Source of the DNA: a virus
Strand: one strand, 5' to 3'
IMG/VR virus record: IMGVR_UViG_3300036853_000134
Location: 2,936 to 66,935 of that record
DNA: 64,000 nt
The notes below the pieces were generated by a model that saw nothing but the letters and a program-made list of their open reading frames with translations, had not been told where the DNA came from and searched no databases. The position numbers were made by a program, and so were the translations under genes. Shown piece by piece: positions 28,949 to 64,000 of the stretch; positions within the stretch are counted from its first letter, which is position 1, and each line of letters opens with the position of its first letter.

Positions 28949-29281
28949 TCATAGTTGCCAATCTCCTAAATCGTCGGGCCATTGTGGCGACTCTAGCTGA
29001 TCGCGTGGCGTTCCGTTCTCGTCAACGTCAGCGAATCCAGGGGCGGCCTGCAAGGATCGTAATTGCGTAATACTGATTGCGCTGCCTAATTCCTTCAGCG
29101 GTATACGGCAGTACGGGCACAGCTTCCAGTCGTTGCTTATTGCGTAGAATCCACAAACGCAATACGTCATCCCCGTGCCCCTCTCATTTTCCACGTCACC
29201 CACAATATTACCACAACCCTGCGCGCAATCAGCGTCAAAAAGATAATTGAGATAGCGGTGGTGGGTCTCATATTCCCTCAA
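28949..29281 (-). CDS. Zn-ribbon protein
   Basis: CVCG...CPYC. Confidence 0.45.
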   Translation of the reverse strand: MREYETHHRYLNYLFDADCAQGCGNIVGDVENERGTGMTYCVCGFYAISNDWKLCPYCRIPLKELGSAISITQLRSLQAAPGFADVDENGTPRDQLESPQWPDDLGDWQL

Positions 29282-29978
29282 ACAGCGAAGACGTTACGAT
29301 GAAATCAGGTAACGGCTCAAAGTCGAAATATTGCACTTCTAGTCGCTTGGCCGCTATCTCGCAATACTCTTCCGTTAACTCGATTCCAACTGCCGACAAT
29401 CCAAGCATCTTCGCAGCGAGAAGAGTTGTGCCGCTTCCCATAAACGGGTCCAAAACCGATTCACCGGGAAGGCTCACGCGCTTTAAAAGTTTCGACCATT
29501 GACCGATAGGCTTCGGGCACGGATGACCGTTTCTAATTGCCGCCTCGGTGCTCACGAAGCTATCAGGCTGCGAACCGGACCCGCCAAACGGGTCTTTGCC
29601 ATAATAGAAAATCGGTTGCCAGCAAGAAAAGCCCCACGGATTACAGCCATTTGCCGCTGGATAAAAGAAACTACCGCAATGGTCTGGCTTCGGATATGAC
29701 CACATATTCTTGACGCCAGGAGTTATCACCGTTCGTGTGGATTTCTCAAAACATAAGACCAGCACTTCATTCACCAATGAGACCACGGTATCTGCTGAAT
29801 CATCAAAACCAGAATAAGGAACGCTTGCGAGCTTTTGGTTTCGCGCTTTATTACCCAAATCAACGCCGTAAGGCGGGTCGGTTAATACCAAATCCACCTT
29901 TGGCAACCCCGGCAGAATCTCACGGCAATCCGCGTTATATATTGTAATCCCGCCGTGCTGATAATACGGTTCGATCAT
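29268..29978 (-). CDS. DNA N6-adenine/N4-cytosine methyltransferase
   Basis: LTDPPY, HPCPKP, VLDPFMGSGTT. Confidence 0.9.
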   Translation of the reverse strand: MIEPYYQHGGITIYNADCREILPGLPKVDLVLTDPPYGVDLGNKARNQKLASVPYSGFDDSADTVVSLVNEVLVLCFEKSTRTVITPGVKNMWSYPKPDHCGSFFYPAANGCNPWGFSCWQPIFYYGKDPFGGSGSQPDSFVSTEAAIRNGHPCPKPIGQWSKLLKRVSLPGESVLDPFMGSGTTLLAAKMLGLSAVGIELTEEYCEIAAKRLEVQYFDFEPLPDFIVTSSLFEGI

Positions 29979-30035
29979 CGCCTCTTCCTCCCTTCCAGTC
30001 TCTTCAGTTCCTTGTTCAGCCGTTGCCTTACGTCG

Positions 30036-30413
30036 TCAGGCTGGGGCGCTGTGAGTTTCTTTATGCCTTATAAGATATTCTATCGCTTTTGCAAGAGAAG
30101 TTTGATTATCTTTGAAAAATCCCAGCCCCGAATTACACGATGAACATAAAAGAGCACGAACATTGCCGGATTCGTGGCAGTGATCGACAACTAATGGGAT
30201 TGCCGCAAATTCAGCCGCCGGACCATCGCGGAGCACATAATCAAGATCAAATTTCGTCGCGCAAATCGAACAGCACCCATCCTGGGCGAGATACATCACT
30301 TTATATTCCTTAAACGTAATTCCGTATGTTTTCTGTAGTCTCAGGTTCAGAAGTGTATGTTTCGACTTTCCCAGTGATTTAACCTTGTCCCTGTACTTAT
30401 CAACGTTTTCCAT
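30036..30413 (-). CDS. Endonuclease VII family His-Me finger nuclease
   Basis: YGIT...Q-G-CSIC...[28 protein letters not shown]. Confidence 0.9.
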   Translation of the reverse strand: [125 protein letters not shown]

Positions 30414-30858
30414 TCGCTACCTGCTTCCGATTAACCGTCCAAGATTCCGAGGGTTTGACGCACGCATAGCTACCTATTAGCTATGCAAAGTATCCGTCCT
30501 GAGTTCGTCGGGCCTATACTTCGCGCGGGTTCGTTGAGTTAGGGTTACGGCTATTCGTCTTACCGCTCGTTACCGATTTATCGTGCCACCCAACCACAGG
30601 GGAAGTTCGTCCTTAGGCTCTTTGATTCCCGTTGCTCCCAAGCGAAACGTTGCCCGTCTTACAGATGTTTGGTCTGCGGGTCGTTTCCCCTGCCACTGCC
30701 AGAATCGTTATTGTCGCCATAACCTGACTTCCTTCGTATACCGCAGGTGCTACCTTGACACGCCAGGGAATTGTTCAGCGATCCCTGAGTTTGTGAAGAC
30801 AGAACTTTCCCGACTCGTTAGTTGTGCTTAATTGAGTTGTTCGATTCTGATGGTCACG
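30414..30858 (-). ncRNA. Putative large structured ncRNA, copy A
   Basis: No credible ORF; promoter upstream; six motif blocks collinear with 56142-56586; complementary segments. Confidence 0.65.
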
Positions 30859-30864
30859 TTTGCG

Positions 30865-30892
30865 ACTATACGCCGATTTTCCTTGAAGTCAA
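30865..30892 (-). promoter_or_regulatory. Sigma70-type promoter of ncRNA A
   Basis: TTGACT-16-TATAGT. Confidence 0.65.
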
Positions 30893-30954
30893 CCCCTAAT
30901 CTGTGACACAATGCGCCTAGTAACCGTGAGCCCTTCCAGCTATGGTTTATGTTT

Positions 30955-31009
30955 TGCCCGGTACGCATCTTGGTCTGATGGTCACGCACTTTCCAAAAGC
31001 TACCGGGCA
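30955..31009. repeat. Hairpin containing a copy of the ncRNA A 5' 13-mer
   Basis: TGCCCGGTA/TACCGGGCA stem; TCTGATGGTCACG at 30974-30986 is identical to 30846-30858. Confidence 0.75.
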
Positions 31010-31192
31010 TTACTGCGTTTTGGGTCGTTTCTCGCACCTATTCTCTTCCGCGATTACCGCCGCGATCCCCAGCAATCCGTAATTCCGTTTATCCAAAGTC
31101 CAGGCGAGCACCTATCCGCAGTGACTGCATTTCAGGCTATTGGCAGGTGAAAAGTCTTTCGGCCTCGGTCCGATTATCTCAGGATGCGGCAT
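31010..31192 (-). pseudogene. Small Zn-finger gene interrupted by an amber codon
   Basis: MPHPEII...KCSHCG*VLAW...; in-frame TAG at 31112-31114. Confidence 0.4.
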
Positions 31193-31373
31193 TCTTCCCT
31201 TTCGGCCCAGGCTTCTTATTCTTCAGGTTCAACACGTCAACGACCCGCAACAGTTTTGCGGGAGTATGGGTGATCAGATTGCCGCGCTTTATATGCTGGG
31301 CAATCGACTGTCTTTTCAGCTTTATCAGCCTTGCGGCTTGCGCCTGTGTAATCAATTCGTTTTCATTAACCAT
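31179..31373 (-). CDS. Small HTH DNA-binding protein
   Basis: LITQAQAARLIKLKRQSIAQHIKRGNL; basic KPGPK tail. Confidence 0.75.
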   Translation of the reverse strand: MVNENELITQAQAARLIKLKRQSIAQHIKRGNLITHTPAKLLRVVDVLNLKNKKPGPKGKNAAS

Positions 31374-42568: not shown

Positions 42569-42919
42569 TCATACGGCTAACTCGTATCCATCATCGGTCG
42601 GACGAATAAATTTGACCGGCTTCTTATATTCATCGGCGATCAATATTTCCGCGCTGATACCTTTGGATTCCCGCCAACCATCAATCATCAGTATCCAAAG
42701 TTCGTCACAGCGGGATATGAATTCCGTATCGAACTTGCGCCAGAATCCCCAATCGCCGGGCATCATGAACAAAACGGCTATTGGATGATTATGAACTATG
42801 GGCGAAAAAACGACCGTATCGTTTTGCGTATAGAACGCGACGCATTGAAGGGCGGCATGGTAGCGCGCCTCTCTTATGCCAGGGTCTTTGTGTGAGTATG
42901 GCGACGCAAGATAAATCAC
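42569..42919 (-). CDS. DUF1937 / nucleoside deoxyribosyltransferase-like protein
   Basis: MIYLASPYSH...FSPIVHNH...GWRESKGISAE. Confidence 0.85.
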   Translation of the reverse strand: MIYLASPYSHKDPGIREARYHAALQCVAFYTQNDTVVFSPIVHNHPIAVLFMMPGDWGFWRKFDTEFISRCDELWILMIDGWRESKGISAEILIADEYKKPVKFIRPTDDGYELAV

Positions 42920-45222
42920 GCGGTTTCCTCCATGTTCTCAATTCCGGCAAACAGCCCCTGAGCGCCAGACGCATAAATAGCGCGCTCCATATTCTTGCTG
43001 GCGGCTCTGAAATATTCCGGCTTTAATTCGCAGCCGATACCTTTGCGTCCAAGTAGCAGTGATTGATAAACCTCAGTGCCAATACCAAGAAAAGGGGTCA
43101 GGACTATTTCACCGGGATTTGACCACAATCGCACGCACCTTTCAACGGTCTCTAATTGAAGTGGTGCAATATGTCGCTCATCCTCTTGCCCCCGACCTTC
43201 CGCCGCGCTCAACGTTGCGGTTTCTTTTATGTCGTACCAGACGGGATGCGCCCATTTGATCCATTGTTCGTGACTCACGTCGGGATGGATTGCAACTTCG
43301 TTTTCACCGGGCTTGTGGAATATCAGAATATAATCTGCAAGCGCAGGGCGCAGCCAGCTCGAATCTTTTCGCAACTGGACGAACATCAGGCTTTTCGATT
43401 TCGTTCTAATTGCCTGTGATTGCGGGTTCTTTTGTATACAAATCTCCCCATAATATATAAAGCCTTTGTCGATAAAATGCCTGATTGTTTCCCCGCGAAA
43501 ATCCATCATTCCGATGTAACCGTCCCGACCCTTCATCATTGGGATTTGCGCGACGTGAACACACATTGAGCGGCCGGGCTTGAGCACGCGGAGCATATTT
43601 GACGAGATGAATTGAAAGTGCTCCCAGAATTCCGTCATCGTTTTACAGTTACCCAGATCCCTTTCGGTTGCCGAATAAGTGAATAGCGACCCGAATGGCG
43701 GAGAGTAAACCGAAAGATCAATGGAATTGTCAGGCAGTCCCGCAAGCACTTCGCAGGAATCACCGTGATAGATTGAATAGTCGTCGCCGTGTTTCTGGTT
43801 CATCACCTGAACATCAGCCGCTTTGGTGCCGAGCCATTTTGGTATTTGCATTGGCTGTACCGCGTCGTAATCCAGACGCGTCGTAACTTGTCCAATTTCC
43901 GCTTTCTCAAATTCGGCAACGTGTTTGATTAGCTCTTTCGTCATCGTGTCCGCCTCTCTCTCTTTTCGCAAAACGTTATCAAAAATATCCATTTCAATAT
44001 CGGTCAGCACAATATAAACATTGACCGGCCGTGTTTGACCGAATCGCCACTCGCGCCGGATACCCTGAAAATATTCCTCATAGCTGTCATTCATTCCAAG
44101 GAAGAGCATGCGCGCGGCCGATTGAAAGTTCATCCCCTGCCCGGCAATCTTAGGCTTACTTATCATCGTCTTGACTTCGCCCCGACCGAAGCCCATCAGG
44201 GTTTCCGTTTTACGCTCGATTGAATCACTGCCCTGAACGTTGACCGCATTGCCCAGTGCTTTTGCCAGCGCATCAGCTTCATCGTTCAGTCCGCACCAAA
44301 TCAGCCATTGCTCATCCGGTTCTCGCTGGATTATTTCGACGGCCGCCTTGACCCGCTCGGCGATTGTTGATTTACGGACCTTTGCGCGGTCACCTACACC
44401 ATGCAGACGGGTCGGGAATAATTGCCCATCGGGAACATAAGTTGACGGGACGACAACGGGAATGATGCTCAACTCCGGCAAATCATATCCAGTGTCATCA
44501 TGTCCAATATCCGATGGCTTGAGCAGCGACATTGCCCAGGATGCAAGCCACTTGTGGAACGCATCACGTCCATGTTTTTTCAATCGCCAGCCATCTTCGT
44601 CATGAACAAAAAACGTCGATAGCATTTCCGTTCGTGTCATCACGCCAAGGAATTCGGCATGGTTCGCAATCTCCGAGATATCATTAGGGGCAGGTGTGGC
44701 TGTACAGCAAAGACGCAGCGGAATTACAGAGCAAAGCTTTATCAGTAAAGATCGGCGTTTGCCTTCAAAATGCTTCAGGCAGCTTGATTCGTCCAGAACG
44801 ACCGCGCCGAATTTCGACATATTGAAATGCTCAATCATCTCGTAATTGATAATCGTGATACCGGATTCCGGCGACTCTTCCATCTTGCGCGCATACGTGA
44901 CCTTGATGCCCCACCTCGCGCCTTCTTCAACAGTTTGATGAGCAACCGCAAGCGGAGCGATTACAAGCGAGCGTCGCGCGGCCAGTTCGGCCCAGGACAA
45001 CTGCATAATCGTCTTGCCAAGGCCAGTGGTAGCGAAAAGCGCGGATCGTCCTTTACGCAGTGACCATCGCACTAAATCACGTTGAAACGGAAATAGATTC
45101 TTATTTAAGTCAGCGGCGTCAACCTCAAATCCGGCCGCAGATGCAACGACAGCTTTCGTTGAAAGAAACTCTTGATAAGAACTTGATATTGCGTTAGATT
45201 GCTCAACAGGCATTTGATTCAC
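42916..45222 (-). CDS. SNF2-like helicase fused to an N4C/N6A DNA methyltransferase
   Basis: TGLGKT, VLDESS, TATPAPND, GQGMNFQ, WRFGQ; then SVYSPPF and TPFLGIGTE. Confidence 0.9.
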   Translation of the reverse strand: MNQMPVEQSNAISSSYQEFLSTKAVVASAAGFEVDAADLNKNLFPFQRDLVRWSLRKGRSALFATTGLGKTIMQLSWAELAARRSLVIAPLAVAHQTVEEGARWGIKVTYARKMEESPESGITIINYEMIEHFNMSKFGAVVLDESSCLKHFEGKRRSLLIKLCSVIPLRLCCTATPAPNDISEIANHAEFLGVMTRTEMLSTFFVHDEDGWRLKKHGRDAFHKWLASWAMSLLKPSDIGHDDTGYDLPELSIIPVVVPSTYVPDGQLFPTRLHGVGDRAKVRKSTIAERVKAAVEIIQREPDEQWLIWCGLNDEADALAKALGNAVNVQGSDSIERKTETLMGFGRGEVKTMISKPKIAGQGMNFQSAARMLFLGMNDSYEEYFQGIRREWRFGQTRPVNVYIVLTDIEMDIFDNVLRKEREADTMTKELIKHVAEFEKAEIGQVTTRLDYDAVQPMQIPKWLGTKAADVQVMNQKHGDDYSIYHGDSCEVLAGLPDNSIDLSVYSPPFGSLFTYSATERDLGNCKTMTEFWEHFQFISSNMLRVLKPGRSMCVHVAQIPMMKGRDGYIGMMDFRGETIRHFIDKGFIYYGEICIQKNPQSQAIRTKSKSLMFVQLRKDSSWLRPALADYILIFHKPGENEVAIHPDVSHEQWIKWAHPVWYDIKETATLSAAEGRGQEDERHIAPLQLETVERCVRLWSNPGEIVLTPFLGIGTEVYQSLLLGRKGIGCELKPEYFRAASKNMERAIYASGAQGLFAGIENMEETA

Positions 45223-51081: not shown

Positions 51082-51633
51082 TCAGCGCTCCAGTGCCTCC
51101 CTTTTTCCGTTAAACCGCCCCGTCGTCAGGTCGTTTTGCACTTTACCCGTTCTCTTTCGCTCTCTGTGATAATGGCACCTTGAGCAAACCGCTTGCACGT
51201 CCTCGTGGTGAATTGCAGCATACCCAAGGTAGTGGTCGTATTCGTGGCGACGACCACCGGGAGCGTATTGATGCCCGCAGTCCACACAAGGAAGATTATC
51301 CGGATCATCCAATATCCCCGCATGGACAAAATAATTAATACGTCCTCGTGCTTGCTTTCTATCGCCATCACGGGCCGGAACAAAAGCACGGCCTTTTTCT
51401 GGGCGATTCCTTTTTACATATCTGAGACGATGCTTGATATTTCTGCCATCCCGGCAGCCCACCGCAAGGCCATCACTGCGCGATGAGTCTCTTCCGAAAG
51501 ACTCTTTCGGGTGCCAGCGCTTGCAGGCTACACACCATTTATTACCAGCGTCCAGATTGCGCCTATATTGTTGCTCAGTGGTTCCCAGCAGCCTAGCCGC
51601 CGACTTGATCGCCCCGTCGCGTGTTTGCGCCAT
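51082..51633 (-). CDS. HNH endonuclease
   Basis: CVAC...C; CVDCG...HEYDHY...VCSRCH. Confidence 0.8.
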   Translation of the reverse strand: MAQTRDGAIKSAARLLGTTEQQYRRNLDAGNKWCVACKRWHPKESFGRDSSRSDGLAVGCRDGRNIKHRLRYVKRNRPEKGRAFVPARDGDRKQARGRINYFVHAGILDDPDNLPCVDCGHQYAPGGRRHEYDHYLGYAAIHHEDVQAVCSRCHYHRERKRTGKVQNDLTTGRFNGKREALER

Positions 51634-51636
51634 GAT

Positions 51637-51693
51637 TCAATTATACGATGGACAGCAGATGAATGTCCATGAAATTCCAGTTGTTTCACCCAT
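51637..51693 (-). pseudogene. Orphaned original N-terminus of the DUF5131 gene
   Basis: MGETTGISWT(FICCPSYN*), coupled to the ASCH stop via TAATG. Confidence 0.7.
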
Positions 51694-55299: not shown

Positions 55300-55636
55300 T
55301 CGCCCGGCAGACCGCCAGGGAAGCTATTAAGTATTTCGCCTGACCGTGACCGTAAACTTATCGCCCGATTTCGTGTCTGGAAATTCGACCGCGCCGACCT
55401 CAAGCGTATTCGATCCACAATGTTCGTTATAAACGGCGAGCCAGATTACTTCATCGCTAATAACATCGGCTTCGGCATCCATTGCTACCTCAAACGTCGC
55501 GCATTCCCTCTCCGCGCTGGCCAGGATGCGCTTGGCGGCGTCGATTGCATCCCTCATCGCTGGACCAAAAGAGCTATCCCAGTCGCGTACAAGTGCCCGC
55601 AGCGCGTCAATATCGGCTGGCGTGATGCTGATTAGC

Positions 55637-55843
55637 TTATTTGCCATTGGACGCCTTCTTTCCGTTCTTTGCGGGCTTGCCGTCAAACGGAGTCCGCTTA
55701 GTCTGTCCGGGCTTCCAAAATCCGTTACTGACCATCCATAACTGAAAACCCTTTTCGAGTATCCAATACATTTTGAGACCGGTTTTCTCAGACATCAACG
55801 ATAACTCTTGATGTGCTTCGTCTGAAATCTTTATCGTTTTCAT
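55637..55843 (-). CDS. Ribbon-helix-helix regulator
   Basis: MKTIKISDEAHQELSLMSEKTG; promoter TTGACA-17-TATTGT directly upstream. Confidence 0.7.
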   Translation of the reverse strand: MKTIKISDEAHQELSLMSEKTGLKMYWILEKGFQLWMVSNGFWKPGQTKRTPFDGKPAKNGKKASNGK

Positions 55844-56000
55844 ATTCAACACAATAAACCCGTCCAGTCTACTTGTCAACACTTATTTCTACTTTTGGAC
55901 ACTAACTGCAAAAATAAATTTATCGCAAAATTATTTCATCCCATCAGGCGCGGGGTTCGCTTGAGCAGGATTGGCGCGAGGCTGGGCGGGTAAAAATCAA

Positions 56001-56051
56001 AACCGCTCAGCTTGTGTTACAAGGACTGGTGGGTTCTTGTGCTGAGCGGTT
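56001..56051. repeat. Hairpin containing a copy of the ncRNA B 5' 11-mer
   Basis: AACCGCTCAGC/GCTGAGCGGTT stem; GTGTTACAAGG at 56014-56024 is identical to 56142-56152. Confidence 0.75.
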
Positions 56052-56105
56052 ATGAATGTCCATGCGCTGGATTAACGGTTTTCATATTAACTGAAAAGAA
56101 TATCG

Positions 56106-56135
56106 TTGACAACCGAAATCGAATCGTCGTATATT
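56106..56135 (+). promoter_or_regulatory. Sigma70-type promoter of ncRNA B
   Basis: TTGACA-18-TATATT. Confidence 0.7.
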
Positions 56136-56141
56136 GACCGC

Positions 56142-56586
56142 GTGTTACAAGGGAATCCAAACAATTCCCAATTTTGAATCCGTAATTCCTTCAACCTGTC
56201 ACTTTGTAAGTGAACGTTTTGAAGCTTTAAATACGGCGTGTCAGTAGAAGGCCACGACCGAGCTTGTCAAAGGGTAAGGCGGGGTCAAGAATCCGACCGA
56301 AGGCGATACGAAGTCGCGGGATTCATCAGCGAGGAGCAATCCAAGCAAATCAATCTTCCCCGGTGTGGAAGTGGCGCGATGAGGTTTAAGCAGTCGGGAG
56401 CGGTCGAATAGTCGCGCAATATAAATCAAAGGACACAACGGCACACCGAACAAGACCGTTGAAACGAAACGACACGCCCGGACTCTGGAAACAATTCCGT
56501 GGGGATGAAACAGAGATTTGAGCCGGGGACGGTTCTTATCTCCCAGTGTCCACGCGTAAGGATGTAATCGGATAGGAGTTGAGTAA
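56142..56586 (+). ncRNA. Putative large structured ncRNA, copy B
   Basis: Collinear motif blocks shared with 30414-30858; GNRA hairpin GAGCCG-GGGA-CGGTTC; long-range complementarity. Confidence 0.65.
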
Positions 56587-57144
56587 GTGGCAGTTTCAAA
56601 AAAAATAATAGAACAGCCGACGATCAAAGAAATGCTGGTTAAGCTATGGTCGGTTGCGGCAGCGCAGCCAGGGTACGATTCCATCGCTTGGCGTCAATTT
56701 CAAGGCGCTCTGGTAAAAGCCGGGATCAAGCCACTTGTCATCACAGACGATGATATTAAGTCTGGTGCGGCTGTTGAATTGCCGATTATCAGAAAGAAGA
56801 TTCGCGGGCTTTGCTATACACACGCAGAGATTAATTTGCCGGAAGTTCAAGCGTTGCGAGCGATGCCGTATAGACAGTATCTTACAACTGCCCACTGGAA
56901 AGCCGTTAGAGAAAGGGCGATTCGTGAGGCAAACGGCGAATGCAGAATGTGCGGCCATTCGAGAAAACTAATCGGGCACCATCAGAACTATGATTTTGTG
57001 GGATGCGAAGAAAGCAAGGATGTGATCGCAATTTGTAATGGCTGTCACGAAAAACATCACGGAAAGAGCAAGCGCAAGAGAAGGCTATTCAATCGGAAAT
57101 CACGCGGCGATTATTACGGACTTACGCGACAGTCTGATATTTGA
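56587..57144 (+). CDS. HNH endonuclease with N-terminal extension
   Basis: YRQYLTTAHWKAVR...CRMCG...HHQNY...G-E---DVIAICNGCHEKHH; SD AGGAG. Confidence 0.85.
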   Translation: MAVSKKIIEQPTIKEMLVKLWSVAAAQPGYDSIAWRQFQGALVKAGIKPLVITDDDIKSGAAVELPIIRKKIRGLCYTHAEINLPEVQALRAMPYRQYLTTAHWKAVRERAIREANGECRMCGHSRKLIGHHQNYDFVGCEESKDVIAICNGCHEKHHGKSKRKRRLFNRKSRGDYYGLTRQSDI

Positions 57145-57175
57145 TTTAACGATTAGCCGCCCACGGGAGGACGCG

Positions 57176-58491
57176 ATGGACGAGAAATCAGCAATAGACC
57201 GTGATAGATATAATATAGGAATTGCAAAAGCGCTGAAGTCTGATTTAGCACAGCAGGCCCGAGAACACTATAGCCGGCTCTCGGACAGCGCCAACGAATT
57301 CAACTCCGTCATTCCTAGCGCGATTAACGTATGGGAATGTATTGACGATGTTCTGATGGGAGAAATTAGCCCTGATATTCCAACTGCGAGCCTTCTTCAG
57401 TCTGTCAACGATGCGCGTCTCCGCTCTATCCGGTCATTGATCGACTACGCACTACGCGTCAAGGTAGCCGCCGCTGTCCAGGCGCAGCGCGAAAAAGACG
57501 CGGGGATCGTGGAAACAATGATGGCAAGCTATGAATATTGTCCTGATAACGACAAGATTACCGTAGGCGGGATGCGCTCACTGATAAAAATGGCCATCGA
57601 AAAGATAAAGGAGCAGCCGTGACTATCCGAGAATTCTTTCGCCGTATCTTTAAACCGTATCCGAGATGCTCCGTGAAAGGCTGCATTCTTCGTCATGGAC
57701 TATTCCAATCAGGCAAGAAGTATCACGTCCATTGCACGACCGACGGCACCATGTTTGTGCGCGGGATCGATATAATTCTGGAAAAGATTAAGGAGCAATC
57801 GTGATAACCCTAAAAGACATTGATTTCAAGGAATTCGACATAGCGGAGGACCGGTTGACGCTGATTAAGACCGGCATCCGCGATTTGCTGCAAGAGGCTC
57901 TGGTTACGGCGCAACGGGCAGAGCGGGAAAGGTGCGCGGGGATTGTACGTAGCTACAAGAATAACGGAATTGATCTGCCGGAAAACCCGCACGATTTCAA
58001 TCATTGCATAGAAGCAGCGGCCCGTGAAATGGAGGACGGAAAGTTATGATTACGATACCGCAAGCTGAACCGGGCGAGATCGAAGTGGGAGAACTCTACC
58101 TAATGACGTGTAAGGAATTTGGGACGCCGAGGCTTGTCACGATAGACAAAAATATAGACGGCAAATACTGGGAACTGATGACTGCGGGCCACGCAAGGCA
58201 TGTCGATATGACGCCTGGTATTAAGCTGTTCGGCCCAATCGAAATCCGGCAGGGGAAGGAAGGTGAGTGATGAGTTTATTTCCAGGCGAAGCCGAAGCGA
58301 TTGAAACTGTTAAGCGGTTAGGCGCTCAGTTTGGCTACGGCAATCTTATCCATCATTTGAAAGACGCGTGGTCAGAGTCGCTACAGAAACAAAACGCCAT
58401 CTTTGATAAACAGACAGCAGATAGAGCGGCGGGCCACGTCTGCGCGTGGTGCAAGGTTGACGGACGAACAGGTAAGAAGGTCAAAGGGTGA
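57176..58491 (+). other. Operon of small hypothetical genes (57176, 57619, 57801, 58046, 58267)
   Basis: Stop/start-overlapping ORFs with SD sequences. Confidence 0.55.
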
Positions 58492-58561: not shown

Positions 58562-61500
58562 TCAGTGAGTGCCTTGCAGTAGCTTCGTAAATCGTTGCCA
58601 CGCCTCTTTTCGTGCGGTCACAGCCCTACCGTAAGTCTCTCTCTGCGCGGGTGTGAGCGATTGCTTGAACTTCGCTTCATTCGTGGCGCTGCCGGTAAAC
58701 AGCGGTCTGAATCCGGCGTCCGCGTACTCCGCTTTTTCCGTACCCGCGTGAAATCCCGCCCATTCGTCAATGGCTTTCTTGATCTTCGTCCGAGCTTCCA
58801 GCCGGTCGTCGATCCCTGGTTTCGTCCCGCGCAATTCACCGAGCAATCGCTTAATCTCAGATTCGGCAGTCGGTAAGTCGGCGGTTTCCAGCGACCGTTT
58901 TAGCTGCGTCAACTCTGACGCGCCACCGCTGAAAGTATCCATTGGGATGCGATTCGCCTGCTTGAACTTCGTGGCGAGCGACTGCACGTCTCTAATCTCC
59001 TGTGGCGTGCGTTTGTAGGTCTGCGTACCGATACCGATGACTGTCGGCAGGGTTTTCACGAATCCCGGCGCGCCAGAGTCCTTGTAGCCTTCGTACAGGT
59101 CACGTCCTACCATTGGAGCGACCATGTTTGCCGCCGCGCCTTTCCATGTGAATTTATCCCCGACGATATTCGAGCCCATCTTATAATCGATTGCTGTACC
59201 CAGCGCTGGTGCTGTCTTTCCACGTAGATAATGAAGCGCGACGTTGCCCGGTTGCTGAGCCTGTGTATTTTCAATACCGCGAGCATTATTCGACAGTCCG
59301 CGCACAAGCTGAAACGCGACTCTCATATCCTGATTCTGTCCGCGCGTGAGATCATAGCTGGTATTTCCCGCTCTGACCTTCAGAAAATCCGGGTCGTCTG
59401 GATCTGTACTTACTTTCAGTCCAGCCGCAGCCGCGAGCCCCAGCGCCGTAACAACACCGCCATAATAGAGTCCCAATGTCCGCCCGGCGATTCGACGCAT
59501 CGCTGGATTCTTGCTTGCCAGCCCATTGAGCATCTGAAAACGCGATGCCATATATCGTGGACTAAACAGGAACAGATTGGCTACTCCGGTCGCGACTTTT
59601 GCCTCATGTGGATACCATCCCTCGCCCAGGTCGCCGCGCCCGGTCGTTCGATTGATGAACTTCGCGAGTTGCTGGAATGCTTCTGGGTTCTTCTCTGGAG
59701 TGTAACCACCTGCCTTATCAGACTTCATTAACTGCGATTCAACTTGATATGCGCGAATCCTTTGCCAGTCGAGGAACGCGGAATATGCGCGCTCGGAACC
59801 AGCGTAGAGCCTACCAATATATGGAATCTTTTCGGGTAGCTTCGATAGAAACGCCTCTTCACGTCCAGCGGATTGCAGCGGATCACCGGCAAAGTATAGT
59901 CCCGCTTTCTTGGCTTCACCAAAAAACGGCATCTTTTGAATCTCATCATAGACGCGGGTTTGCCCGACTTCCGACATCGCCTGAAATTGTTTTATGAATG
60001 CCTCTGCCGCGATCTTTGGATGCGCGAATACCTGGACCAATCCCTGGCGACCACCAGCGGATATGTCGATAGAGGTCAGTAGTGATTTCGGCGCGTTGAT
60101 TACATCGGATGCTGCGCGCAGGACCTTTGCACCGATACCCTCATTCATCCGTTTGATAATCTGCTGAACTTCGCGAGTCGCCGCCCGGTTCTCGTTTTGC
60201 AGCTTGACATTTTCAGCGGTCAGCGGCAATTTTGCTTTCGGTGTTTTTTCAAAGTTGCCCGTCCGCAACATCTCTTCGAGCTCAGCCTGACGCTTGACGA
60301 GTCGTTTACGGAGCGCCTCATTCTGGCTGGCCTGCTTCTTTGCGATCGCCGCCGGGTCAGCATCTTTGAGAGCTTGGTAGGTTTTCTTTGCGGCGTCGCG
60401 TCGCTGTTTGAGCGCTTCCAATTGCAGGTTGGTCACCGGGTCGGCCTTGGCTTTCGCGGTAAAATCCTTGTCGCTTATCCGCCGATCATATTCGGTAATC
60501 GACTTTTCAAGTGAGCGTTGCGCCATTTCGATCCGCTGGGCATCGGTCATCCTGCGCGGTCCGTTGATAGCGTCAAGGGTTGCGCGCAAAGAATCCCGTT
60601 CGGCCTGCAATGCTTTCGCCTCGGCGTCTAATGGCACAGGCGTCCGTTGTGGCGGCTTCTCGCCAGTCTTTATCTGCCGATCCAGATCCTGAATTGCATT
60701 CTTCAGCCGCGTCTTCACACCATCAAGCGCCGACTTCTGTTGCTGCTCCGGTGACCGCTCACTGCCTTCAATTTTAATACCGTGTTCTCGCTTTAGCTGA
60801 TTCAATCGCTGGGTCCGCGCGCGTTCTTCGGCTGTCGGCGGATCGGGTTGGTATCCACTTCGCGGCGGTCGTTTACCAGCAACGATATCCTCTTCAGCGG
60901 AAACGTCTCGCAATTCCCGTTTGATCTTGCGCAATTCGGTGTCAATCGCATCCTTTGATGGGCGGCTGGTTTTACCTGATCCGCTAATTGCATCCCGAAT
61001 ATCACGATAGGTGAATCCATCTGGCAGGGCATCTTTTACATCGGAGTAGATAGAATCCACTATATCGACTGCTTTAACCATCCCAGCTTCGATTCTATTG
61101 CGCGCCATTTTCGTTAACAGCGTCACGGCTTCGGCTGGCAAAGTCAAGCCGACGACCGCGCCAGCTTCAGGACCGCCCAGCCCCTTTGACGGCGGCTCTT
61201 TCGACTTGAACAGGTTTTTAAACTCGGCCTTCAGCGAATCGAAATCATTATCGAGTTTCGCCTTTGTGACCGTCCGCCTGGTCCGTCGCGCCGCAGTCTT
61301 TACTTCATCGTCGATCTTTTTAACCGCTCTATCAGCGGCTCTCTGTGCGTCAATCTCATCCTGTTTGGCTAAATCTTCGGACGTGCGCTTGATCGTCTCG
61401 GACAATTCTTTCAATCGAACGGCGGTCTTTTCCGGAACGGGCTGGCCATCGTTTGCGATCTTCGCACGGCGCATCAGATTGTCGAGCGAATAGTCCTCAC

Positions 61501-64000
61501 GGATCATCATTCGGCGAATTGCCAGCGCTCGCCCAGCGTGCGTACCCGTTCTATCGGCCGCGAAGTCGTTGTTTTCGATATGCTGTTTTACCGCGTCCAA
61601 TTGACCGTTAAGACTAATTTGCGCCTCTTCGTTACCCGATTTCTGCGCCTCGGCGATCTGCTCCTCAAGCGACGCCTGTTCATTTTGCAGACGCATCCGG
61701 TCGTATATGAGCGCAGCGCTTTCAGCATCGGTCAGTACACGCGGCTTTGTGGTCAATTCCTTGACTGACTGTCGATAAGCTTCAGGGTCATTGTCGACGA
61801 TTGCCCGTCCCTGGTCGTAGGATGTACCGAACGATTTACGCGCCAACTTCTCAATTGGCGGCGCTCCACGAGCCTCACGCTCCAAATCTACTTGGCTGTT
61901 TTTAATCCCGGTCACACGCGGCTCAGGCTCTGGTGTTTCGCCTAATTCTTCGTGTGCCTTATTGAACAATTCCCGCAGGTGTGGCTTCACCTCATCGCCA
62001 ATCTCTAAAATCATCTGCCGCGAGAAGTCGGCAAACGTCCTGACGCCGCGCTCAATATGGTAGCCAGCGACGTACAGCCAGTCCTTCAACTCTTCGGTTG
62101 TGATCGGTCCAGAACGGCGCAGATTCTTATCAGGATTCAGGATACGATCAAGCGCTTCGTCCGCACCTTCTTTGGTAAAGAGCGTGTTTTGCTCGCCAGA
62201 TGACGCCGTAGGCAACTCTATCTGCGTATCGAACATGTCGGGAGTCTTCGTGTCTTTTGGCGCAACTGTCGTCTTTTCAACGACATTCTTCCGCCCGGTC
62301 TTCATCCCGATACGCAACAATTCCTTGTCGTTCTCGATCTTCGCCTTGGCTTTATTCTTTTCGGTCTCTAATTTACCAGCGGCTTCGGCTCGGTCGATAT
62401 CTCGCTGAAAGTCTTCTGGCGTTGCCTCCGGACGATTCGCGGCATCGTGAAAATCTTTTAACGTGCCGTAGTGTTCAATCGGCGCTGGCGGTTCGTAGCC
62501 TTTGGGTAGATAAACATATTCCTGATCGCCACCCATTGAGCCTTTGACAGCAATGAAATCTTCTTTTGGAAATGAGAATTCGCGGACGGACTTACCGCCG
62601 TGTGTGTAGTTCCGCGCCTCTCCCGCTGTTCCCGCAACGAAATCACCAGGTCGGAGTTCTGCGCGGCCAGTGCCCCGATAGACCGTCATTGGTTCTTTAC
62701 CGGTCAAGCGCTTCGCGTCGCGGCCAAGTTTCCCTATTTCTTCTTCTGTCGCGTATGGGCTTCGCTGGGAAACACGCTGAAGTTTTTTAAAGATTGCGTC
62801 GGCCACGTCATCAGAGAACTTCTCGCCGGGTTTCACCGACCCGACCTGATTGGCGATAATTCGCTTTGCCGCTTCGTAGCTTTTACCTTTGATCTTGTCG
62901 GCGAGTCTTGTTAGCTCTGATGGGATTTGCTCTGGCGTTGATTCTCGCTCTTGGCTACCGCTCTCCTGAAAATCTGCTGCCTCAATGCCATTCTCTTTAA
63001 TGTCGGTAGCGCGCTGTATGAGGTTGTCGATTGTTTCTGGTGTGAGTCCGTGCCTTGCGCCTTCGCTCCTGAGTTGTTGGGCACCGTCATCGACCGCTGA
63101 GTCGAAGGCTTTGCCAAGCTCACTGTCAGGGTCTTTAAGTTCGGCTTCAACAAGCTTACTTTCGCGTTGAAAAGCTTCAGTGGCGTCTTGTGATTGTTGG
63201 TGTCGCTCATAATCTGCGTCCAATCCTTTATCGATTATATTCTGATCTCGATACTTTGAATAGGTTTTCTTTCCCGCCAGGTCGTCTTCAATTGCGCTCA
63301 TCATGTCGGAAATAGTCGCGTCTTCTTCCAGGAAGTGCGATTCTTTCATCGCCTCAAGCATTCTATCGGGCGATAATCCATTCTTAGTAAACAGCCCAGT
63401 CGTGCCCGATTCCTTTGCGCGCAGTCGATTAAGCTCGCCGCCAAGATCGGCATCAGCTTTGAACCCGCGATTGGTATCGTTCGGTCGTCGCGCAAACTCA
63501 GAGATACTTCTGTCTTCGTGCTCTGCTTTTGGCGGCCTCGGTCGCTTGGTGGTTAGCCCTTGTCGGTTCGCGTCCGATTCGATCTTCGCTCGCGCCTCCG
63601 CTTCCATCGTGCGAGCTTCCTGCAACTTGCCCTTTGCCACAGTCAGGTCCATTCGAATTGAGCCTTTATTGTCGCGTGCGGTAGCGTTGCTCAGGCGGGT
63701 TTGCAGTTTATCGACTTGCTTTTTCGCAAGTTCAATCGCTTGCTTTGCGCCCGCCAGCATTCCATGGCCGGGAGAATTGACGGATTTAGGATTGACCAGC
63801 TTTAGCGGTGCATCTGGATCGACAGGTTTTCTGCTCCTTGACGTACCGGATTCTGGCTGTTGCAATTCAGGGTGCTCTCGCAGGACTTCTGGCGGTATCT
63901 CTTTGCCTTCCTTGATTGCCTGCGTAATACCCTGCTGTGCCGCCATCTGTGCGGGGCTTAACTTTTCAGACGGCCTGCGCAGCGGTTCTGTCTTGCGCGC
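58562..64000 (-). CDS. Giant internal virion / large polyvalent protein (N-terminus beyond the window)
   Basis: Frame is open to 64000 (over 1800 aa). ART-like VYRG...PGDFV...EYVY segment, long coiled coils, and a C-terminal helical/hydrophobic domain (LFSPRY, STDPDDPDFLK). Confidence 0.8.
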   Translation of the reverse strand, partial: ARKTEPLRRPSEKLSPAQMAAQQGITQAIKEGKEIPPEVLREHPELQQPESGTSRSRKPVDPDAPLKLVNPKSVNSPGHGMLAGAKQAIELAKKQVDKLQTRLSNATARDNKGSIRMDLTVAKGKLQEARTMEAEARAKIESDANRQGLTTKRPRPPKAEHEDRSISEFARRPNDTNRGFKADADLGGELNRLRAKESGTTGLFTKNGLSPDRMLEAMKESHFLEEDATISDMMSAIEDDLAGKKTYSKYRDQNIIDKGLDADYERHQQSQDATEAFQRESKLVEAELKDPDSELGKAFDSAVDDGAQQLRSEGARHGLTPETIDNLIQRATDIKENGIEAADFQESGSQERESTPEQIPSELTRLADKIKGKSYEAAKRIIANQVGSVKPGEKFSDDVADAIFKKLQRVSQRSPYATEEEIGKLGRDAKRLTGKEPMTVYRGTGRAELRPGDFVAGTAGEARNYTHGGKSVREFSFPKEDFIAVKGSMGGDQEYVYLPKGYEPPAPIEHYGTLKDFHDAANRPEATPEDFQRDIDRAEAAGKLETEKNKAKAKIENDKELLRIGMKTGRKNVVEKTTVAPKDTKTPDMFDTQIELPTASSGEQNTLFTKEGADEALDRILNPDKNLRRSGPITTEELKDWLYVAGYHIERGVRTFADFSRQMILEIGDEVKPHLRELFNKAHEELGETPEPEPRVTGIKNSQVDLEREARGAPPIEKLARKSFGTSYDQGRAIVDNDPEAYRQSVKELTTKPRVLTDAESAALIYDRMRLQNEQASLEEQIAEAQKSGNEEAQISLNGQLDAVKQHIENNDFAADRTGTHAGRALAIRRMMIREDYSLDNLMRRAKIANDGQPVPEKTAVRLKELSETIKRTSEDLAKQDEIDAQRAADRAVKKIDDEVKTAARRTRRTVTKAKLDNDFDSLKAEFKNLFKSKEPPSKGLGGPEAGAVVGLTLPAEAVTLLTKMARNRIEAGMVKAVDIVDSIYSDVKDALPDGFTYRDIRDAISGSGKTSRPSKDAIDTELRKIKRELRDVSAEEDIVAGKRPPRSGYQPDPPTAEERARTQRLNQLKREHGIKIEGSERSPEQQQKSALDGVKTRLKNAIQDLDRQIKTGEKPPQRTPVPLDAEAKALQAERDSLRATLDAINGPRRMTDAQRIEMAQRSLEKSITEYDRRISDKDFTAKAKADPVTNLQLEALKQRRDAAKKTYQALKDADPAAIAKKQASQNEALRKRLVKRQAELEEMLRTGNFEKTPKAKLPLTAENVKLQNENRAATREVQQIIKRMNEGIGAKVLRAASDVINAPKSLLTSIDISAGGRQGLVQVFAHPKIAAEAFIKQFQAMSEVGQTRVYDEIQKMPFFGEAKKAGLYFAGDPLQSAGREEAFLSKLPEKIPYIGRLYAGSERAYSAFLDWQRIRAYQVESQLMKSDKAGGYTPEKNPEAFQQLAKFINRTTGRGDLGEGWYPHEAKVATGVANLFLFSPRYMASRFQMLNGLASKNPAMRRIAGRTLGLYYGGVVTALGLAAAAGLKVSTDPDDPDFLKVRAGNTSYDLTRGQNQDMRVAFQLVRGLSNNARGIENTQAQQPGNVALHYLRGKTAPALGTAIDYKMGSNIVGDKFTWKGAAANMVAPMVGRDLYEGYKDSGAPGFVKTLPTVIGIGTQTYKRTPQEIRDVQSLATKFKQANRIPMDTFSGGASELTQLKRSLETADLPTAESEIKRLLGELRGTKPGIDDRLEARTKIKKAIDEWAGFHAGTEKAEYADAGFRPLFTGSATNEAKFKQSLTPAQRETYGRAVTARKEAWQRFTKLLQGTH

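Follow-up and report, generated by a model that had tools for sequence, protein, structure and literature searches.

The 64,000-nucleotide (nt) stretch analysed here (the window) covers positions 2936-66935 of the 66,935-nt virus record IMGVR_UViG_3300036853_000134, the single genome of an uncultured soil phage, which carries terminal repeats and is rated complete. It contains two modules, A and B, in which a sigma70-like promoter is followed by a 445-nt untranslated leader and by an operon that begins with a small His-Me nuclease gene. The strongest signal in the two modules is a short word present twice in each of them, once at the predicted 5' end of the leader and once in the loop of a hairpin upstream of the promoter; it lies partly outside the region covered by a preliminary description of this DNA, in which the leaders were presented as a large noncoding RNA. 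This sequence architecture is not random, and it is more in keeping with control of gene expression through a long mRNA leader and a module-specific word than with a new RNA-guided nuclease. The modules are best explained as regulatory leaders instead of free-standing noncoding RNAs, and, with a probability of roughly 40%, they may represent two diverged copies of a leader controlled by a divergently encoded antisense RNA, in the manner of the par and zor-orz systems.

Repeated words and upstream hairpins

Each module possesses its own word as an exact direct repeat with an offset of exactly 128 nt. The word of module A comprises 13 nt, with the downstream copy at 30846-30858 (minus strand) and the upstream copy at 30974-30986, and the word of module B comprises 11 nt, with the downstream copy at 56142-56152 (plus strand) and the upstream copy at 56014-56024. 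The whole genome holds only 17 repeat pairs of at least 11 nt at offsets of 15-500 nt, two of which are the words of A and B, and the rate of repeats for any one combination of position and offset is about 5e-7. By this rate, chance would place a second repeat in the same position with the same offset about 5e-7 times, or about 1e-5 times if ±2 nt is allowed for each, and the matching second repeat is therefore not a product of chance. No further copy of either word with fewer than two mismatches was found in the window.

The downstream copies are placed with respect to the nuclease promoters in the same way. Promoter A (30865-30892, minus strand) reads TTGACT-16-TATAGT and matches the consensus at 10/12 positions, being one of seven sites genome-wide that score at least 10/12, and promoter B (56106-56135, plus strand) reads TTGACA-18-TATATT with 11/12 matches; both assignments are consensus matches only. 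In both modules the identity between the two copies starts at the seventh base past the -10 hexamer, which is the predicted +1, and the preceding base differs. Identity that starts precisely there is consistent with a constraint acting on the transcribed bases. In addition, the word differs between the modules and is identical within each of them, which is the pattern expected from base pairing. As the surroundings have diverged to noise while the words are perfect, selection for identity within each module is indicated, and base pairing is the simplest reason for it.

In A and B alike, the upstream copy occupies the loop of a hairpin. The hairpin of module A (30956-31008, strand unassigned) has an 8-bp outer stem and folds on both strands, with z values of -1.3 (plus) and -2.0 (minus). 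The hairpin of module B (56001-56051, strand likewise unassigned) has an 11-bp outer stem and z values of -6.2 (minus) and -5.7 (plus), and none of 200 shuffled sequences folded equally well. On the minus strand, hairpin B is followed by a T-run at 55990-56000, an order that corresponds to a canonical terminator and predicts an RNA of about 85 nt. A mobile 115-nt promoter piece flanked by a target-site duplication was rejected as the origin of the repeats, since the hairpin arms would straddle the junction in both modules.

Both modules are located where transcription diverges, and a candidate antisense promoter was recognized in each. The one in module A (30883-30912, plus strand) reads TTGAAG-18-CACAAT with a TG extension and matches at 8/12 positions, and the one in module B (56084-56112, minus strand) reads TTGTCA-17-TAATAT with 9/12. 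Both overlap the -35 element of the nuclease promoter, and a transcript initiated from them would reach the complement of the word after 55 nt in A and 53 nt in B.

Possible antisense control and protein-based alternatives

From this architecture we infer two opposing transcripts, their pairing and an effect of that pairing on expression. A strong host-type promoter would produce an mRNA with an untranslated leader of about 445 nt (30414-30858, minus strand, in A; 56142-56586, plus strand, in B) ahead of the nuclease-led operon, and the downstream word copy would constitute the first transcribed bases of this leader. The second promoter, back to back with the first, would read the upstream copy in the opposite direction and give rise to a small hairpin RNA, with a loop that would perfectly complement the leader mRNA at its 5' end. 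Such pairing could then alter the fate of the mRNA through its stability, its folding or the access of ribosomes, and expression of a potentially harmful nuclease and of the genes behind it would be held back or timed. When free of the small RNA, the first bases of the leader may engage the conserved GUGGCRCG block further inside it, a pairing that reached an ensemble probability of 0.68 in A (459-nt context) and 0.54 in B (505-nt context). The differences between A and B in this pairing are one-sided changes that keep it intact, with no case of double compensation.

Several known systems provide precedents for such a design. The par locus of pAD1 is described in PMC7472228 as producing RNAs that are read oppositely across DNA direct repeats, the repeats differing between paralogues that do not cross-talk. 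For zorO-orzO, a divergent small RNA gene faces the long 5' untranslated region of the toxin gene, and the duplicated copies of the locus differ in their specificity regions, according to the accounts in PMC3919570 and PMC5397157, while RalR-RalA is presented in PMC4041452 as a DNase toxin under small RNA control. The modules resemble these systems in that DNA direct repeats, read oppositely, would yield complementary RNAs, in that the regulator would be encoded beside the target without overlap, in the long 5' untranslated region of the target, in the duplication of the locus with different pairing words, and in a product that may harm the cell, for which the DNase RalR is a precedent. At the DNA level, the short exact complementarity via direct repeats that characterizes par and zor-orz is present, and transcription in opposite directions would complete it. 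Candidate features of a small RNA gene are a 9/12 promoter, an 11-bp stem and a T-run in B, and an 8/12 promoter with TG extension, with no T-run, in A.

The modules also depart from par and zor-orz in several respects. In place of small toxic membrane peptides, the presumed target genes encode nucleases with lengths of 125 and 185 amino acids (aa) at the head of long phage operons, and the leader reaches 445 nt with a pairing word of only 11-13 nt at its very 5' end. Unlike the convergent promoters of par, the predicted promoters of the modules are divergent and back to back. The locus may thus work like the par/zor-orz family without being a member of it.

The transcript of ColE1 known as RNA II, about 500 nt long and made from a host-type promoter, is bound at its 5' end by the loops of the small hairpin RNA I, which redirects its folding. 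RNA I overlaps RNA II, whereas the complementary word in the phage modules is encoded separately; moreover, protein genes lie behind the phage leaders and no origin function is indicated there.

If control by antisense RNA holds, the modules would be a phage case of par/zor-orz-type RNA control acting on nuclease-led operons and not on a toxin peptide. One of the controlled operons would be that for packaging and virion proteins, and a single genome would contain two copies with separate words. To the known ways in which phages keep their own nucleases in check, the arrangement would contribute a means of timing, and it would represent a compact regulatory part that can be re-addressed.

A number of observations weigh against antisense control. 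The transcripts on both strands are predicted from promoter-like and hairpin sequences, and the antisense promoter of module A is weak, its 8/12 match being returned by a relaxed scan only and falling below the threshold of the standard scan. No terminator or T-run was seen behind hairpin A. G-U pairs slightly favour the nuclease-sense strand of the hairpins (-35.8 vs -29.8 kcal/mol in B; z -2.0 vs -1.3 in A), and a 64-aa gene upstream of module A on the sense strand is likely real, so that hairpin A may also be sense-transcribed. The words offer 11-13 nt of pairing, and 12 nt of continuous pairing are given as insufficient for zorO-orzO in PMC3919570. By duplex energy, the candidate small RNAs show no preference for the cognate leader over the cross leader. 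Once the word and the promoter are disregarded, alignment of the two upstream halves is no better than that of controls (593 and 438 of 3610 windows score as well), and fold predictions for RNAs of 450-500 nt, the pairing with the GUGGCRCG block included, vary with context length and serve as leads only.

The words might instead be DNA operators for the cognate nuclease or for another protein, with the downstream copy as an operator across the transcription start, the upstream copy as an auxiliary site 128 bp (about 12 helical turns) away and autorepression as the outcome; this is considered unlikely. The words would then differ between the modules because the nucleases differ, and indeed different nucleases go with different words in the two modules. 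T4 intron endonucleases are reported in PMC2988022 to bind homing-site-like operators that overlap their own promoters, and all three nuclease genes of the phage, including a third one described below, have their own promoter-like site with CGTATA in common at the -10 position. A small helix-turn-helix (HTH)-like gene with a weak match (E 7e-4) just upstream of module A could supply a DNA-binding protein of this kind. Binding of a protein, however, leaves unexplained both the start of the identity exactly at the predicted +1 and the hairpin-loop position of the upstream copy in both modules. The words are not clear palindromes, the window contains no further copy that might correspond, for example, to a homing site, and two new protein specificities would have to be fitted into one inherited geometry.

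Tight control of phage nuclease genes at the RNA level is well known from T4, where, as summarized in PMC2988022, the I-TevI operator mimics the homing site and hairpins hide the ribosome sites of I-TevI, segB and mobE. As in T4, the nuclease genes of the modules have their own promoters and apparently layered control, the promoter contains a sequence with a second copy in another place, and the Shine-Dalgarno region of leader A is predicted to be paired, with positions +109 to +116 at a probability of about 0.9. The T4 hairpins, in contrast, are local and short with no leaders of 445 nt, and what the I-TevI operator reproduces is a target site within a different gene, whereas the words of the modules have their second copy in a hairpin loop 128 nt upstream.

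The leaders might also be sites of processive antitermination or attenuation, comparable to lambda PR' with Q or to an AlpA-controlled promoter, where transcription stops within the leader or remains silent until a phage factor loads at a shared promoter element; the conserved blocks would then be factor, pause or terminator elements. A strong, constitutive-looking promoter and a leader followed by packaging and virion genes are reminiscent of the lambda Q/PR' 6S leader and of AlpA, and so is the small DNA-binding-like gene just upstream. The operon behind leader A proceeds from Endonuclease VII through a DNA methylase, two small open reading frames (ORFs), the small terminase, the large terminase and the portal to the major head protein, a gene order by which module A heads the packaging and virion operon. 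In lambda, Q precedes PR', an order that resembles the position of the small gene upstream of module A.

This small gene, the 64-aa ORF at 31179-31373 (minus strand, the same as that of module A), has gene-like codon usage, with a score of 0.158 against a mean of -0.08 for spurious ORFs. It matches PHROG excisionase/MerR-type proteins at E 7e-4 and Pfam HTH_17 at E 0.09, below the cut-off, and a promoter-like site (8/12) would start transcription at its ATG. Its product is possibly a regulator of the late promoter, judged from sequence features. Promoters A and B also share spacer motifs, and leader B bears a terminator-like hairpin at +10 to +28; together with the weak HTH-like gene, these are the observed features that recall a Q/AlpA-type unit. 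AlpA is set out as a precedent for antitermination in PMC9371919 and PMC7969949. Leader A, on the other hand, has no clear terminator-like site, the similarity of the 64-aa protein is of the weak excisionase/MerR type with no match to AlpA or Q families, and antitermination leaves unaccounted for the repeated word, to which nothing in the Q and AlpA systems corresponds. Antitermination is regarded as rather improbable.

Likeness and folding of the two leaders

The six motif blocks listed in the preliminary description occur where it placed them, in the same order on the nuclease-sense strand of both modules, and its spacing values were reproduced: the predicted +1 is 94 nt (A) and 93 nt (B) from the first block and 433 and 431 nt from the end of TAATCGGA, which is followed by 12 and 14 nt to the start codon. 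Two of the blocks, GTGGCRCGAT and CGAATAGYCG, have no further occurrence on either strand of the 66,935-nt genome. The position of the best-conserved core (30528-30631 in A, 56316-56434 in B) differs by about 35 nt between the two leaders, and the total leader length is nonetheless equal within 2 nt.

The extent of the likeness was measured against several controls. Exact words of at least 6 nt within ±45 nt of the register number 19 and add up to 128 nt, a sum matched by 0/1500 random segments of the same genome with A as the query and by 2/1500 with B. Under a strict register (±6), 30 nt are shared, which was reached by 22/3999 and 48/4000 controls. In local alignments over 886 genome windows, B is the best non-self match of A (21.5; next 18.5), and with B as the query another site ranks first (22.5) and A second. 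For 5140 windows from 83 unrelated loci the maximum scores were 21.0 and 22.0, and the A-B score of 21.5 equals the maximum over these windows. The global alignment gave z = 2.9 over 300 shuffles, and identity in the leader alignments is roughly 50% (190/405 and 191/363 aligned positions). BLAST within the genome did not link A and B and returned only the query itself. The leader similarity is above the same-genome controls at p about 1e-3, and is only moderate. Similarity no better than controls had been named in advance as an outcome that would count against the proposal, and the leaders passed this check; the view of A and B as related copies of one promoter-leader-nuclease design can be retained, with a similarity that exceeds chance only moderately.

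Calling the leaders ORF-free, as was done at first, is correct only in a loose sense, for sense ORFs of 57 and 41 aa in B and antisense ORFs of 82 and 147 aa were found. Codon usage of the scored ORFs (82, 147 and 57 aa) is like that of spurious ORFs, and the 82- and 147-aa antisense ORFs have no family match in Pfam or PHROG. The leaders were rejected as coding sequences, the antisense ORFs not being alike in frame and the short sense ORFs with ribosome sites differing between A and B.

Some local elements are shared by the leaders without a common position. A GGGA...AACAATTCCC hairpin is present at 30764-30787 (minus strand) and 56151-56169 (plus strand), which corresponds to +72 to +95 in A and +10 to +28 in B, and that of B is terminator-like with a weak T-run behind it. 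A third copy of AAACAATTCC is found in B at 56489-56498, 330 nt downstream. The first conserved block of B (56235-56242) is perfectly complementary to 56471-56478, 236 nt downstream, with an ensemble probability of about 0.37, and A has no counterpart of this pairing.

The moderate likeness also raises the question of whether the modules are neutral remnants of an old promoter-region duplication that has decayed to nearly random sequence, the shared blocks having no function today and the nucleases being free-standing selfish genes behind two similar promoters. Such an origin would agree with an overall similarity that is weak and invisible to BLAST, with the lack of a fold signal described below and with the presence of at least one more self-promoted HNH cassette in the phage. 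Long upstream gaps are also rare among Endonuclease VII relatives, with a median of 71 nt and at least 300 nt in only 7/76, and a long upstream gap is therefore not an Endonuclease VII trait. Two different perfect words of 11-13 nt with the same offset and position, in surroundings of about 50% identity, cannot however be neutral, and the total leader length has stayed equal to within 2 nt although internal segments have moved by about 35 nt, which makes simple decay rather unlikely as an account of the modules.

The preliminary description had further proposed a conserved structured RNA of about 430 nt, and this part was not borne out. The minimum free energies deviate by +0.59 (A) and -0.66 (B) standard deviations from those of dinucleotide shuffles, no excess of folding energy being seen, and the opposite strands fold no worse than the leader strands. 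The structure conservation index was 0.197 for a MAFFT alignment and 0.175 for an anchored one, the same as for column shuffles (0.19 ± 0.04; 100 each), and the consensus fold of the best-conserved 140 columns reached only -3.9 kcal/mol. The pairing of CGUGUCA with UGGCRCG can be drawn in both copies, as claimed, but has ensemble probabilities of 0.00 (A) and 0.22 (B), and the helix nested within it, drawable as well, has about 0.01 in both. These fold tests are weak for one pair of about half-identical sequences, so that they do not prove the absence of structure.

Comparison with described RNAs gave a consistent picture. No Rfam family matched at the gathering score in the 64-kb window, and sensitive scans of both regions at E ≤10 returned nothing relevant, HEARO included; the rows obtained were small nucleolar RNA and small RNA families at chance level (E 2.9, 8.7 and 4.6), far below their gathering scores. 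GOLLD, ROOL, group I/II introns and small ribozymes had no covariance-model match in Rfam. As anticipated, no described family accounts for the leaders. A covariance model of the 140-column core, run over 663,800 nt from the window and 90 loci, recovered nothing besides the two copies from which it was built, the next row having E 6.5.

Nucleases, operons and relatives

The gene behind leader A (30036-30413, minus strand) encodes a 125-aa Endonuclease VII and is the first of its operon. The protein matches PF02945 with 72.2 bits against a cut-off of 23.6, as well as PHROG endonuclease VII, and contains the Cys and His-Asp motifs in the peptides CxxC, DHCH and CxxCN; a Pfam match above the gathering score and these motifs together identify it as an Endonuclease VII. 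Among solved structures its best match is the catalytic motif of the restriction enzyme Hpy99I (E 8e-9), ahead of T4 endonuclease VII chains (E 0.02). T4 gene 49 is under translational control. A DNA methylase gene (N6/N4) lies 57 nt behind the Endonuclease VII gene (the two spanning 29268-30413, minus strand), and it is conceivable from the gene order that they form a restriction-modification-like pair.

The gene behind leader B (56587-57144, plus strand, GTG start) encodes a 185-aa HNH-type nuclease, termed HNH-B, which is followed in the operon by five small ORFs without a family match. HNH-B matches PHROG HNH families down to E 7e-10 and has no match in Pfam, whose HNH families are absent at E ≤0.01. 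Seven columns (C119, H131, H132, C150, C153, H154 and H158) are invariant in 50 sequences, and the core is modelled at a predicted local distance difference test (pLDDT) score above 90 with the beta-beta-alpha-metal fold typical of HNH nucleases. This core (about residues 84-162) belongs to a family of 15,751 representatives at E ≤1e-3 with many different N-termini. The N-terminus of HNH-B (residues 1-80) is an orphan, helical in a low-confidence model, and among the 150 relatives listed, four match into residues 31-59 of the query and none further upstream.

These properties bear on the proposal that the RNA of about 430 nt is a scaffold with a 5' guide for a His-Me nuclease, as in IscB/IshB, or else a ribozyme or a replication-primer RNA. 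The superficial resemblance to an IscB/IshB omega RNA includes a noncoding region, a few hundred nt long, immediately ahead of an HNH ORF, a protein of IshB-like size (about 180 aa), a variable 5' word with more conserved blocks downstream, and an exact DNA match of the word nearby. The best biological match of HNH-B among solved structures is the IscB HNH domain (E 0.005), restricted to residues 94-163; over these residues the NCBIfam model guided_IscB reached 16.5 bits, its cut-off being 175, and Foldseek returned generic HNH folds only, with IscB chains at a probability of 0.20-0.25. The resemblance to IscB is limited to the generic HNH core of a huge family with diverse N-termini. IshB proteins are defined in PMC10734217 by a PLMP domain N-terminal to HNH, and no PLMP-like part was seen in HNH-B; the Rfam scans found no HEARO directly upstream of it. 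The modules also lack a RuvC part, and the scanned neighbours are phage genes or unknowns, no IS200/IS605 context having been seen although no search was aimed at TnpA.

In contrast to an IscB/IshB system, the second copy carries an unrelated Endonuclease VII, and the two scaffold copies are about half identical instead of near-identical. Both proteins are ordinary small His-Me nucleases, and the notion of an RNA-guided scaffold with interchangeable nucleases is not supported. Omega RNAs vary, and a distant one may have escaped the Rfam scans. It is very improbable that the first 11-13 leader bases guide a nuclease-bound RNA to the word in the upstream hairpin or in a competing phage for nicking or cutting. 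If realised, such a function would be a major finding, namely a minimal RNA-directed nuclease on two unrelated His-Me folds without RuvC or a known omega RNA; a long gap before an HNH gene and a few shared motifs are, however, not evidence for an RNA-guided enzyme. A scaffold, ribozyme or primer RNA is regarded as highly improbable, for neither an Rfam match at E ≤10 nor a conserved fold signal was obtained, two unrelated nuclease families would have to bind one scaffold, and the sole match of the "guide" is in the phage's own genome 128 bp upstream, where nothing would spare it.

Relatives with a comparable arrangement were sought in several collections. The phage has no close relative by blastn against 50,697 phage records. 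The core motif had no match in IMG/VR and four chance-like matches without extension in GTDB genomes, and a second motif had 32 matches in IMG/VR, none of which extends past the motif (scores 12-17.5 against A and up to 21 against B); 32 is the number estimated from chance. HNH-B has no relatives in IMG/VR. Endonuclease VII has 109 there, of which 80 were kept, the best being about 48% identical and one 64% identical over 44 residues, and none of the 80 has a similar upstream region. The large terminase has three relatives in IMG/VR and seven in JGI metagenomes (at most 56% identical), which share no other tested gene except for one methylase match in a single locus (L122), and another locus (L119), taken from a 71-kb contig, shows no long gap heading the terminase-side gene block. 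The only close protein relatives are 78% identical to HNH-B (1382-nt contig) and 84% identical to the Endonuclease VII of module A (1662-nt contig).

Four short contigs from a second soil metagenome of another study are identical to the phage with 0 differences (window positions 55576-58021). These fragments show that the phage is not confined to one sample and, being without any differences, provide no usable sequence variation.

A third nuclease gene encodes 183 aa (51082-51633, minus strand) and has a promoter-like site at 51640-51669 on the same strand (TGGACA-18-TATAAT, 11/12), whose CGTATA context at -10 is the same as in promoters A and B. The expected transcription start falls on the ATG, so that this mRNA would be leaderless, and a DUF5131 gene adjoins the nuclease gene. 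The largest ORF of the genome (1794 aa; 58562-63946, minus strand) has no PHROG or Pfam match, and a single 768-aa ORF (42916-45222, minus strand) combines helicase and DNA methyltransferase PHROG matches.

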